Assembly: GCA_964447735.1 (NCBI GenBank)
Contig: CAYUTJ010000005.1
Location: 1 to 29,751, forward strand
Reading direction: 5' to 3'
DNA: 29,751 bases
Origin: an uncultured Candidatus Saccharibacteria bacterium
Lineage (GTDB): Bacteria > Patescibacteriota > Minisyncoccia > Minisyncoccales > GBS-2
The translations under genes and the position numbers were made by a program. The notes under the pieces were generated by a model. That model was not told where the DNA came from, ran no database searches, and saw nothing but the letters and a program-made list of their open reading frames with translations. Below, one piece after another: positions 1,344-21,380 of this stretch (its first letter is position 1; each line of letters opens with the position of its first letter).

Positions 1344-1365
1344 GACCTTTCATTTTTTAATTATA
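1344..1365 (-). promoter_or_regulatory. -10 TATAAT followed by AAAGGTC leader motif
   Basis: TATAAT at 1365-1360, then 9 nt, AAAGGTC at 1350-1344, then 17 nt to ATG 1326. No convincing -35. Confidence 0.45.
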
Positions 1366-1367
1366 AT

Positions 1368-1393
1368 AAAAGCCCCCACAAGGAAAGAGGGCT
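1368..1393 (-). terminator. probable intrinsic terminator after 1408..1671
   Basis: Minus strand AGCCCTC-tttccttgt-GGGGGCT (7-bp stem with one G-U pair) followed by TTTATT. Confidence 0.55.
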
Positions 1394-1407
1394 ATTTTGT
1401 TTTCAGC

Positions 1408-1671
1408 TTAAAGAGAATTTAAATCTTGATCTATTTCTTTAAATTCTTGATCTAAATTTCCAATATCTATACTCTCTATTTCCTTAAAAATGGTATCTGT
1501 CGAATCTTCCTTTCCAGGTCCTTTAGTTCTAGTTATCTCTTCTGAGACAGGAAGTGAAGAAGGTGTTGTTTTCTTGCTTTGCCAGTAAATCAAACCACCA
1601 ACAATTGAAACCAAAAGGATAATTACCACCAAAGCTATAACATTTGTTTTTGTTTGTGTTTTTTGCTCCAT
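1408..1671 (-). CDS. small single-TM hypothetical protein
   Basis: Hydrophobic stretch VIALVVIILLVSIVGGLIYW and an acidic C-terminus ESIDIGNLDQEFKEIDQDLNSL; 5 nt from the upstream gene. Confidence 0.75.
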   Translation of the reverse strand: MEQKTQTKTNVIALVVIILLVSIVGGLIYWQSKKTTPSSLPVSEEITRTKGPGKEDSTDTIFKEIESIDIGNLDQEFKEIDQDLNSL

Positions 1672-1676
1672 GTTTT

Positions 1677-2441
1677 TTATTCAATAGTTTGAGTGGGGGT
1701 GGCTTGTTGAGTTGTCGTTGTTGTTTGTTCTGTTGTTATCGGAACTTCGTATTCATTCACTCTCGGAATCTGAGCTAAAGCAACGGCTGCTTTGTGAACT
1801 AAATCCCTTGCCTTTTTAACTAATTTCTCAACTGCTTTCAAATCATCATGAAGAGCTTTTCTCAACTTCCCAACATCGGTTCTTAAATTCTCTTCTGTAG
1901 TAATTTGAGGAGGTTCGTAGACTTTTTCAGCTTGTTTTTCTACAGCCTCTTTTGCTTTCTCTATTGCCAAACGAGCTTCGTTAATTGCTGATTCTACTTG
2001 GCTAACATCTTTTCCGTGTAGTTTGGCTTTTGCAGTTCTACTTTCAATCTTTTCTAAAATCAATTCTAGACGATCTAAAACGTTTAAATAGTGATTGGTC
2101 ATTCTTTCATTTAAAGCATTCACCCTTTCATAAATTCTTTCAACAATCTTTTGTTTTGTTTGACTTATCCTCTCTTTCATTCTTTCTCTCAATTGTTGCT
2201 TGAAATCTTCAATCTTTGATTTTATTTTTTCTCTTCTTTCTTTAATTTTGTTTCTCAATTCAATCTGCTTTTGCAAAATTAAATTTTTAAATTCTTCTCT
2301 TTTTTTCCTGAATTCTTCAACTGAAATTTGCCTTTTCTCTCTAATTCTTTCCAAAATTGTATTTCTCCAAGGAGGAGCAGCTACAATTTGAGAGGTCAAA
2401 ACTAAGCTTAAAATCAAACCGACAATTATTTTCTTTCTCAT
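1677..2441 (-). CDS. secreted coiled-coil hypothetical protein with Thr-rich tail
   Basis: Signal peptide MRKKIIVGLILSLVLTSQIVAA, a long E/K/R heptad-rich helix and a TTEQTTTTTQQATPT tail. Confidence 0.8.
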   Translation of the reverse strand: MRKKIIVGLILSLVLTSQIVAAPPWRNTILERIREKRQISVEEFRKKREEFKNLILQKQIELRNKIKERREKIKSKIEDFKQQLRERMKERISQTKQKIVERIYERVNALNERMTNHYLNVLDRLELILEKIESRTAKAKLHGKDVSQVESAINEARLAIEKAKEAVEKQAEKVYEPPQITTEENLRTDVGKLRKALHDDLKAVEKLVKKARDLVHKAAVALAQIPRVNEYEVPITTEQTTTTTQQATPTQTIE

Positions 2442-2460
2442 ATTTCAAAAAAATATTTTT

Positions 2461-2470
2461 CGACCTTTAT
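2461..2470 (-). promoter_or_regulatory. ATAAAGGTCG leader motif
   Basis: AAAGGTC at 2468-2462, 20 nt before ATG 2441. Confidence 0.45.
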
Positions 2471-2476
2471 AATATT

Positions 2477-19542: not shown

Positions 19543-19543
19543 A

Positions 19544-19933
19544 TTATTTGAGTAAATCAGATAAGGTTATTGAATTTAATGCAGAGTTAATGATTTTGTT
19601 TAACCTTTTCCAAAAATTTTTCGCTAAACATTTTTTTTCTCTAGGACAGAAAGATCTTAAACATTCAACCAAAGGTTTCTCTCCTTCTAAAACATCAATG
19701 ATTTCTCCTATTTTTATTCTTTCTGGTTTTTTGGCTAAAAAATAACCTCCTTTTTTCCCTTTTTTTGCTTCAACTAAATTTTTCTTTTCCAGTTTTGAGA
19801 AAATCTTTTCTAAAAAATTTAAAGGAATTTTCTCTTTTTTTGAAATCTCCCTCAAAGAACAAATTTTCCCTTCTTGCTTTGCTAAATAAACCATTGCCCT
19901 CAAACCGTATTGAGTTTTTTTAGATATTTTCAT
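19544..19933 (-). CDS. Rrf2-family regulator (IscR-like, 3 Cys); real start ATG 19933, since the ORF-track TTG 19990 is the -35 box
   Basis: MKISKKTQYGLRAM, KGKKGGYFLAK, IGEIIDVLEG and CLRSFCPREKKC. Confidence 0.93.
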   Translation of the reverse strand: MKISKKTQYGLRAMVYLAKQEGKICSLREISKKEKIPLNFLEKIFSKLEKKNLVEAKKGKKGGYFLAKKPERIKIGEIIDVLEGEKPLVECLRSFCPREKKCLAKNFWKRLNKIINSALNSITLSDLLK

Positions 19934-19935
19934 AT

Positions 19936-19962
19936 TAAAACCGACCAGTTTGGTCGGTTTTA
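19936..19962. promoter_or_regulatory. perfect inverted repeat (12-bp arms, 3-nt spacer), IscR type-1-like operator
   Basis: TAAAACCGACCA-GTT-TGGTCGGTTTTA lies between the -10 box and the rrf2 ATG. Confidence 0.8.
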
Positions 19963-19990
19963 TTTTATTCTTCTTGGTAATTATTGTCAA
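19962..19990 (-). promoter_or_regulatory. sigma70 promoter TTGACA-N17-TAAAAT for the rrf2-iscS-iscU-mnmA operon
   Basis: -35 at 19990-19985 and -10 at 19967-19962. Confidence 0.85.
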
Positions 19991-19993
19991 GTT

Positions 19994-20185
19994 CTAACCT
20001 TCAACTTCGATCGCTCCTCCAGGACATCCTTCTTTAGCTTGAATAATACATTCTTTATTTTTTTCAAAGTCTGCGCCTTCTTTAACACGGGACTTTCCAT
20101 CTTCTCCCAACTCAAAAACATCAGGACAAACTGAAGCACAAAATCCACAACCTATACATCTTTCTTTGTTTACTTTTGGTTTCAT
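19994..20185 (-). CDS. single-cluster [4Fe-4S] ferredoxin; ATG 20185 preferred
   Basis: CIGCGFCASVCPDVF...GCPGGAI (CxxCxxC plus a distal CP). Confidence 0.92.
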   Translation of the reverse strand: MKPKVNKERCIGCGFCASVCPDVFELGEDGKSRVKEGADFEKNKECIIQAKEGCPGGAIEVEG

Positions 20186-20189
20186 ATTT

Positions 20190-21380
20190 TTATTCTCCAA
20201 TAAATTTGACCTTTGCAATTTTTGACATTTCTAAAGTTAAGGCTCTCAAATGATCTTTTTTTAAATCGTGAATGTCCTTTTCTCCACAGGCTCCAGCAAT
20301 CATTTTTACTTCTTCTGTACAATTTTTAATAAAACTTGCTACCTTTTTTGCTGCCTCATCTATTTCTAATCTCTGTCTAAATTGCTCATCTTGAGTTGTC
20401 AAACCAACAGGACATTTCCCAAGATGGCACAATCTACAATAAATACAACCCATAGCTACAAGCATTGAGGTTGCCATAAAAACTGCATCTGCTCCTAAAG
20501 CCAAAGCTTTAGCAACATCTCCTCCTTTTCTTAATCCTCCTCCAATCCAAAGTTCTTGTTTAGCTCCCAATTTATCTAAAGTTTCTCTGGCTCTGACTAA
20601 GGCTGCTAAAGTTGGAATACCAACTTCATCTTGCATCACTTCTGGTGCAGCCCCTGTAGCCCCCTCCATTCCATCAATGGCAATAATGTCAGGATTGGCT
20701 TTTACTGCAAATTCCACATCTTCTTCTACATTTCCTGCAGCTAATTTAATAATAATTGGAACCCCCCCTGTTATTTCTCTCAACCATTCTATTTTTTCTT
20801 TTAAATCCTCAACACTTTTTATATCTGGATGATAAGCCGGAGAATGAACATCTTTTCGAGGAGGCACGTTTCTAACTTTTGCAATTTCTTCTGTTACTTT
20901 TTCGCCTGGTAAAAGCCCTCCCTGCCCTGGTTTTGCTCCTTGTCCAATCTTAATTTCTATAGCATCTGCTTTTTTTAATACCTCCTCTGTGATCCCGAAT
21001 CTTGCAGTTGAATACTGAATTATCAAATATTTTGCATTTTCTCTTTCCTCTGGAAGCATTCCTCCTTCACCTGTATTAGTCATTGTTCCAGCCATTTTAG
21101 CTCCCCTTGCTAAAGCAATTTTCGCTTCTTTTGAAAGAGAACCAAAGGACATTGCAGAAATTATTATCGGAGTTTCCAATTCAATTGGCTTTTTACAAAA
21201 TCTCCCAACTATCGTCTTTGAAGAAATCTCTTCTTTGTAATAATCTACCGGTCTTTTTGATAGTTGAGCTGGTACAAATATTAAATCATCGAAAGAAATT
21301 TTTCCCCACTTTTTGGTATGTCCTCCCAAGACCGGAACTCTTTCTGTCCTTTTTTGAATTTCTTTTAACCAATCTTCCAT
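20190..21380 (-). CDS. stand-alone FMN-binding glutamate synthase domain (GltB2/archaeal-type); ATG 21380 preferred
   Basis: SAMSFGSLS, NTGEGG, EIKIGQGAKPGQGGLLPGEKV, DGMEGATGA, GGLRKGGDVAKALALGAD and GCIYCRLCHLGKCPVG. Confidence 0.9.
   Translation of the reverse strand: MEDWLKEIQKRTERVPVLGGHTKKWGKISFDDLIFVPAQLSKRPVDYYKEEISSKTIVGRFCKKPIELETPIIISAMSFGSLSKEAKIALARGAKMAGTMTNTGEGGMLPEERENAKYLIIQYSTARFGITEEVLKKADAIEIKIGQGAKPGQGGLLPGEKVTEEIAKVRNVPPRKDVHSPAYHPDIKSVEDLKEKIEWLREITGGVPIIIKLAAGNVEEDVEFAVKANPDIIAIDGMEGATGAAPEVMQDEVGIPTLAALVRARETLDKLGAKQELWIGGGLRKGGDVAKALALGADAVFMATSMLVAMGCIYCRLCHLGKCPVGLTTQDEQFRQRLEIDEAAKKVASFIKNCTEEVKMIAGACGEKDIHDLKKDHLRALTLEMSKIAKVKFIGE

Follow-up and report, generated by a model that had tools for sequence, protein, structure and literature searches.

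How does a bacterium with few Shine-Dalgarno (SD) sequences find the start codons of those messages that still carry a 5' leader? This question is raised by the stretch of DNA analysed here (29,751 nucleotides (nt), hereafter the window), in which the word AAAGGTC recurs at a nearly constant distance before ATG codons. Our comparisons suggest that AAAGGUC(R)A may well be a family-specific signal in mRNA leaders, which would recruit or position ribosomes on leadered or internal cistrons as a substitute for the SD sequence. The window is contig C5 of the assembly G000, which comprises 612 kb in 38 contigs, has 31% G+C and is 87% complete. It was compared with G001 from the same genus and with family relatives of other genera (G002-G006), and the relatives include Parcubacteria GBS-2 (G002), DG_74_3, Candidatus Nealsonbacteria, and Paceibacterales. 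A simple hexamer-based caller yielded 639 genes in G000, 619 of which were used for the test of motif spacers. Protein identities were assigned by Pfam in G000 and were judged by N-terminal sequence only in the sister genera.

In the window, GACCTTT is present in six copies on the plus strand and four copies on the minus strand, and this total of ten is not above shuffled sequences (mean 6.5), indicating that the signal lies in the position of the motif rather than in its count. Five of the six sense copies are located inside a 6-nt-wide zone before approximately 38 starts, which covers about 0.8% of the window; according to our own arithmetic, the probability of such an arrangement is about 1e-10. 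Recounting recovered all six plus-strand copies of the earlier note, and its spacers of 17, 20, 17, 21, and 22 nt to a minus-strand ATG were obtained again when re-derived, while the copy it described as mid-gene is indeed enclosed by gene 21383-22582. The earlier note also reported -10 hexamers 8-9 nt upstream of three copies, for which gaps of 9, 9, and 8 nt were measured; a fourth -10 box (TAAAAT, 2479-2474, gap of 5 nt) was missing from its count. The promoter-like sites of copies 3 and 4 are the best in the region, with that of copy 4 scoring highest, and the 14-mer AAAATATAAAGGTC, which had been noticed as common to two copies, is present at both 10232 and 11169. Copy 2 precedes a gene (1677-2441) for a 254-amino-acid protein with an N-terminal hydrophobic segment and no Pfam match. 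Copy 5 falls within the terminal codons (..A-K-V-K-F-I-G-E-stop) of gene 20190-21389, which lies upstream, and a -10 box is absent nearby. An Rfam scan of the window at the gathering score returned a tRNA at 29698-29751 as its sole match, and no Rfam family was hit at the motif. All coordinates are collected in Table 1.

The positional signal extends to the whole genome. AAAGGTC ends 13-26 nt before the first ATG in 32 of the 619 genes of G000 (~5%), with a peak at 17-23 nt and not a single copy at 0-12 nt, which agrees with the proposal that the word is too far from the ATG to serve as an SD sequence. Between -32 and -11, AAGGTC is the top enriched hexamer (32 observed vs 4.5 expected), so the positional enrichment on which the earlier note had staked its case is clear. 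All 32 of these hexamers are preceded by A, and position 8 is A (17) or G (14) in 31 of them, while the dozen bases on the 3' side are rich in A and contain hardly any C or G. AAAGGTT represents a weaker form of the motif. Across six genomes (62 sites), the dinucleotide following the motif is mostly GA (22) or AA (20). At the 32 sites, none of the columns between -40 and -1, counted from the motif, is informative, and no conserved -35 partner was found. An alternative-sigma (extracytoplasmic function-type) -35 or -10 element was ruled out because an upstream partner is not conserved, and a sigma-70 -10 element was rejected because AAAGGTC is not a TAnnnT word and the true -10 boxes lie upstream of it. 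An in-frame N-terminal extension or non-AUG start was also discarded, as the spacers span the reading frames (15 of 32 in frame vs ~11 expected). Two genes of G000 have tandem AAAGGTC(G)AAA copies in one leader (C26 3048-3083 and C8 12597-12625), spaced 29 and 22 nt apart.

The motif is conserved within the family. In G002, it precedes 16 of 402 genes with spacers of 18-25 nt, and in G004 it precedes 8 of 78 genes, including those of EF-Tu, GAPDH, S7, and ferredoxin; few copies were found in G005 (3-4 of 96 genes), G003 (1 of 30), and G006 (2-4 of 82). Genes with matching N-termini are preceded by the motif at the same distance in G002 and G004. Orthologs of three window genes retain the motif despite diverged flanks and spacers. 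The G002 ortholog of gene 1677-2441 keeps AAAGGTCG with TAAAAT 8 nt upstream, and the G002 ortholog of the DUF5320 gene keeps TTGACA, TATATT, and AAAGGTCA, with a diverged spacer to the ATG. In the G001 ortholog of the AhpD-like gene, AAAGGTCA is retained, while the flanks have diverged and the -10 box is lost. The 12-mer AAAGGTCRAAAA occurs 7-19 times per genome in all seven family members, compared with 3-6 times for a reversed control, and is no more frequent than the control in almost all of roughly 80 other families belonging to the order; two genomes of other families in the order, sampled at 200 kb each, showed no enrichment of the motif. The lineage specificity suggested by the earlier note thus holds at the level of one family, where the motif is found in six genera, with background levels in about 80 others.

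The genes behind the motif in G000 include those of EF-Tu, GroES, GAPDH, fructose-bisphosphate aldolase/phosphatase, pilins, ATP synthase subunit c, rubrerythrin, ferredoxin, and KhpA. Motif genes of the sister genera encode DnaK-, L7/L12-, and S7-like proteins; those of G002 encode GroES, two pilins, fructose-bisphosphatase, inositol-phosphate synthase, two KhpA proteins, ATP synthase subunit c, an SPFH protein, DnaK, and L7/L12. Judged from these identities, many of the encoded proteins belong to classes that are usually abundant. A conserved hairpin, GATTCTCTC...GAGAGAATC, precedes the KhpA genes, with CTGGT and the motif after it in this order (G000 C1 38893-38960, minus strand; G002 C1 177150-177650), and G002 possesses two tandem KhpA paralogs with the motif before each.

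The translation background of this lineage is unusual. In G000, G makes up only about 10% of the bases at -12 to -1, and neither GGAG nor AGGA forms a real peak upstream of starts. The 16S rRNA tail ends in ...GCCCGUAGAACAAUUACUUUUU, compared with GGAUCACCUCCUUA, and CCUCC is absent from it as well as from the tails of 20 of 20 same-order relatives in that sample. Hence both the SD signal and the anti-SD are absent, in keeping with the SD-poor genome supposed by the earlier note. According to a previous study, about half of Parcubacteria lack the anti-SD, and these overlap with lineages without uL1 (Tsurumaki et al. 2022, PMC9297842). uL1 was not found in G000, bearing in mind that the assembly is 87% complete; S1 is a truncated 252-amino-acid protein covering about two S1 domains only, and bS21 is marginal (26.8 bits vs a cut-off of 27). 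One relative of the same order, G043 (C15:2450-3050), retains a canonical GGATCACCTCCTTA anti-SD, which shows that anti-SD loss is not uniform across the order.

A strong -10 box (TAAAAT or TATAAT) is located 5-9 nt before the ATG in 105 of the 639 genes, with a peak at 6 (6-7) nt, and these boxes are accompanied by a TTG signal of the -35 type 17-18 nt further upstream. The same pattern is seen in G002 and, more weakly, in other relatives. As a -10 box 6-7 nt before the ATG implies leaderless mRNA, leaderless mRNA is, on this promoter spacing, the default of the lineage, and the motif therefore marks a minority of leadered messages. Operon-internal genes mostly overlap their upstream neighbour (332 junctions below 0 nt in G000 and G002).

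The motif could also be a promoter-proximal DNA element, that is, the start site or initially transcribed region of strong promoters, which would set the start, escape, or nucleotide sensing, and its distance to the ATG would then reflect uniformly short leaders. We consider this explanation rather unlikely, although several observations fit it. The pile of -10 boxes in motif genes is displaced to 25-40 nt before the ATG, namely 5-9 nt before the motif, and a strong -10 box is present 4-10 nt upstream in 15 of 48 sites (31%; G000 and G002 together) vs 4% in controls; groES has its -10 box 7-8 nt upstream. From this spacing, transcripts at promoter-bearing sites are predicted to start no more than ~3 nt from the first A of the motif, which supports, for about one-third of the sites, the placement of the motif at the transcript start by the earlier note. 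Moreover, the first A of the motif occupies the position of the ATG's A in the leaderless promoters of the same genomes, and, behind equivalent -10 boxes, the PF04008 gene has a motif-bearing leader in G000 but no leader in G003 (TAAAAT-7 nt-ATG). However, the motif is rarest where a promoter has to be present: at divergent junctions, it was found at 4 of 133 (3%), compared with 46% for the leaderless -10 box, while co-directional junctions of 15-100 nt carry it at 25 of 162 (15%; Fisher p = 0.0003 against divergent ones). Two-thirds of the sites have no recognisable -10 box, and most of these are at co-directional junctions; 10 of the 48 are inside the 3' end of the upstream gene, nine of them without a -10 box, as exemplified by EF-Tu behind fusA and, in G000 as well as in G002, by an SDR gene. 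Conservation is lacking at every position upstream of the motif, the AhpD-like ortholog in G001 has kept the motif and not the -10 box, and the gap between -10 box and motif (5-9 nt) is flatter than the sharp leaderless peak at 6-7 nt. Leaders of tRNA genes are devoid of the motif (0 of 37 genes). At the ferredoxin junction, the upstream gene reads AAAGGTC as ..A-K-V-K.. in G000 and as ..A-K-G-Q-N-I-S-stop in G004; retention in two reading frames indicates selection on the nucleotides and not on the protein. Taken together, the junction bias, the embedded sites, the ferredoxin frames, and the absence from tRNA leaders favour an mRNA signal for the downstream cistron. Among the options listed by the earlier note, ribosome loading or another RNA-level role is thus favoured, while an initially transcribed sequence is less so, given the promoterless copies in upstream gene ends.

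Two further explanations concern proteins that would bind the word. A site for an RNA-binding protein (a CsrA-type regulon, e.g., of the KH-domain protein KhpA), or a 5' stabiliser or processing site in RNase J-based decay, would suit a short, single-stranded, strand-specific, and leader-restricted word before a defined and conserved gene set, and the KhpA genes themselves carry the motif in G000 and G002. RNase J, RNase III, and PNPase have been described as the main RNases kept by bacteria of the Candidate Phyla Radiation (PMC12641178), which fits such a role in decay. However, a regulator site need not hold a distance of 13-26 nt to the AUG, and the gene set resembles abundant proteins rather than one physiological regulon, which makes this explanation improbable in our view; it also overlaps with a ribosome-directed signal, because a ribosome-associated protein could be the reader. 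Far less probable is a DNA operator of a global transcription factor. Such an operator would account for a recurrent word near the promoters of a gene set and for its presence inside the CIRCE (controlling inverted repeat of chaperone expression) operator at groES, but the word lacks symmetry, spans 7-9 nt, has a strict orientation with respect to the gene, keeps its place with respect to the ATG, and is often found in upstream coding sequence without a promoter; apart from the CIRCE arms at groES, no inverted or direct repeat accompanies it.

The groES locus shows that the word itself has a wider distribution. Upstream of groES, the motif fills the 9-nt gap between the arms of a CIRCE-like operator, TTATCACTC-AAAGGTCGA-GAGTGATAA. 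Of 80 relatives, 30 from many families have AAGGTC in the groES leader, mostly as TTAGCACTC-AAAGGTCGN-..TTGCTAA (L083-L162); in many families, the spacer AAAGGTCGN is conserved whereas the right arm is degenerate at its three inner bases, and a few groES loci retain the word without intact CIRCE arms. The word at this locus thus predates its genome-wide use in the family and is also more widespread. The likeness to the CIRCE/HrcA operator (TTAGCACTC-N9-GAGTGCTAA) is restricted to groES, where the motif takes the place of N9 in G000, in G002, and in many relatives, whereas the inverted-repeat arms are absent at the five window copies and at the other genomic copies. CIRCE spacers are normally not conserved; in contrast, the groES spacer AAAGGTCG is conserved here and the inner right arm is degenerate.

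Returning to the ribosome-directed leader signal, we propose that it would serve the minority of cistrons that are neither leaderless nor reachable by stop/start coupling. At genes with their own promoter, the transcript would begin at the motif or no more than ~3 nt away from it, giving the shortest leader that retains the signal; at the other sites, the motif would be internal to a polycistronic mRNA. The ribosome or a bound factor would read the word about one SD-helix length further upstream than the SD position, and a ligand bound close to the 5' end may also protect the mRNA against RNase J. Several points weigh against this proposal. About 95% of genes are without the motif, which therefore cannot be a general ribosome-binding site. 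The 16S 3' tail (...GUAGAACAAUUACUUUUUAAUU) has no convincing complement to the motif, a result consistent with the non-SD nature claimed by the earlier note. AAAGGTC occurs 27 times inside coding sequence vs 40 expected from codon-shuffled genes (z = -2.1), a deficit to be read against equal variation among neighbouring words. Gene calls and start choices rest on a home-made caller, and a motif in place of the leaderless ATG is also what a role in transcription start or escape would look like.

A ribosomal partner for the motif was sought elsewhere in 16S rRNA. GACCUUU and its G-U wobble variants were found nowhere in 16S, and there is no 7-nt complement; the 16S 5' leader hairpins contain CGACCUU, which is buried in a stem. 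The best duplex between motif and 16S is formed by GGUCGA with UCGACC (about -10 kcal/mol), and UCGACC sits in the 8-nt apical loop (U-G/C/A-UCGACC) of a truncated helix 26. This loop reads UCUCGACC in G000 and UGUCGACC in most relatives; its UCGACC core is invariant across the order, while the stem covaries. A previous study described helix 26, which adjoins the SD helix in ordinary ribosomes, as unusually conserved in Parcubacteria with a role that is not known (PMC9297842). Exact complementarity exists between the loop and a 16S 3' trailer word (GGUCGAG in G000, GUCGAC elsewhere); this conserved GUCGAN lies 17-55 nt past helix 45. The variable loop base and the trailer base form G-C in 11 of 21 distinct rows, G-U in five, A-U in three, and C-G in two, with none unpaired, although the trailer words were picked by eye and the alignment thus leans towards structure. 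The two C-G pairs belong to different families (G000 and G043), representing independent switches. This covariation identifies the loop as a genuine site of RNA pairing with GUCGA-type words and suggests, on the comparative alignment, a hitherto undescribed long-range interaction within Paceibacterales pre-16S rRNA; the trailer word is probably part of the precursor, because G043 still has CCUCC. A canonical 16S end, GGATCACCTCCT, upstream of one motif copy on contig C27 lies in pilin-like coding sequence and was dismissed as a coincidence.

Speculatively, the conserved helix-26 loop is the best sequence-based candidate for the reader of the motif. It is possible, though we think it unlikely, that the loop acts as a surrogate anti-SD, which would be occupied by the trailer in the precursor and, once freed by processing, would bind GGUC(GA) in the leader, at an additional distance from the AUG of about one SD helix. 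Its partner at groES would be the CIRCE hairpin loop, the spacer of which (AAAGGUCG) shows conservation throughout the order. However, GGUC is universal among the sites while GGUCGA is present in only about 35% of them, the obligatory AAA is not accounted for by pairing, and families with an identical loop do not use the motif genome-wide. Extension of the pairing to the variable loop base received no support, since the base after GGUCGA is mostly A both in G000 (loop C) and in G002 (loop G).

Table 1. Coordinates of the motif copies and related features. Positions refer to the window unless a contig is given.
Feature	Position	Strand	Remarks
Motif copy 1, AAAGGTC(A)	1344..1350	-	17 nt to ATG 1326 of gene 835-1326, Pfam PF04008, 'adenosine-specific kinase' family
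-10 box TATAAT	1360..1365	-	Gap of 9 nt to copy 1; downstream of a terminator-like hairpin at 1373-1390
Motif copy 2, AAAGGTC(G)	2462..2468	-	20 nt to ATG 2441 of gene 1677-2441
-10 box TAAAAT	2474..2479	-	Gap of 5 nt to copy 2
Motif copy 3, AAAGGTC(T)	10232..10238	-	17 nt to ATG 10214 of gene 9708-10214, carboxymuconolactone decarboxylase/AhpD-like, PF02627
Promoter-like TTGAAA-17-TATATT	10248..10276	-	-10 box (10253-10248) ends 9 nt before copy 3; 10/12 matches
Motif copy 4, AAAGGTC(G)	11169..11175	-	21 nt to ATG 11147 of gene 10914-11147, DUF5320, PF17253
Promoter-like TTGACA-17-TATATT	11184..11212	-	-10 box (11189-11184) ends 8 nt before copy 4; 11/12 matches
Motif copy 5, AAAGGTC(A)	20208..20214	-	22 nt to ATG 20185 of a 63-amino-acid 4Fe-4S ferredoxin (19994-20185)
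Sixth sense AAAGGTC, background copy, not part of the element	22137..22143	-	Middle of gene 21383-22582
Example of leaderless architecture	811-838	-	
Helix-26 loop and trailer word, G000 contig C6 (L001)	945-952 and 1651-1657		Relatives L003-L024, L193-L213
~70 nt tRNA-upstream repeat, G000	C1 ~39368-39437; C2 ~161-230; C9 ~21532-21601; C12 ~3447-3516; others		

Apart from the motif, at least eight tRNA genes of G000 (Met, Glu, Val, Lys, Gly, Asp, and two Arg) are immediately preceded by a repeat of about 70 nt (ccgcaccgaacgtagattcctcattttgcgaagcaaaatgagctggtcatgcgaggtgccggtggcccgc and variants), which is possibly a shared precursor-leader structure.

The motif resembles several known systems, each of which differs from it. 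Like the SD sequence, it is a short purine-rich mRNA word with a constrained distance to the start, strand-specific upstream enrichment, and use at internal cistrons and before genes of normally abundant proteins; unlike it, the word is AAAGGUC and not GGAGG, ends 13-26 nt rather than 5-10 nt from the AUG, serves only about 5% of genes, and meets a 16S 3' tail without CCUCC or a motif complement. CsrA/RsmA GGA sites are also short G-containing single-stranded leader motifs defining an mRNA set, but the core here is GGUC with an obligatory AAA, held at a fixed distance from the AUG. Translational enhancers such as the epsilon sequence of phage T7 gene 10 have been proposed to pair with internal 16S regions, and 'STAB-SD' sequences are 5' stabilisers of Bacillus mRNAs. 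These are likewise leader words outside the SD window, which increase expression or stability through ribosome binding, and the motif is often at the very 5' end like STAB-SD; however, they act alongside an SD/anti-SD system that is absent here, and the pairing with helix 26 is hypothetical in our case. Genomes with leaderless mRNAs (GeneMarkS-2 'group C'; the Parcubacteria of PMC9297842) share the -10 boxes 6-7 nt before the ATG and the loss of SD and anti-SD, but their descriptions cover the leaderless majority and the rRNA loss, not a conserved word on the leadered minority. In the literature on anti-SD, leaderless mRNA, or such a motif in Patescibacteria, we found no paper describing it, and only the 2022 anti-SD report was relevant.

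On the strength of its position and conservation, the motif is probably an undescribed signal that lets a few leadered messages be translated. It provides a concrete, conserved, and strand-specific handle on how starts are found at non-leaderless messages in Parcubacteria without an anti-SD, as it marks defined leadered or internal cistrons, is private to one family, and has a testable candidate partner on the ribosome. For genomes of this family, gene finders and start callers could replace the SD model with a pair of models, one for a -10 box 6-7 nt before the ATG and the other for AAAGGTC some 20 nt before it.

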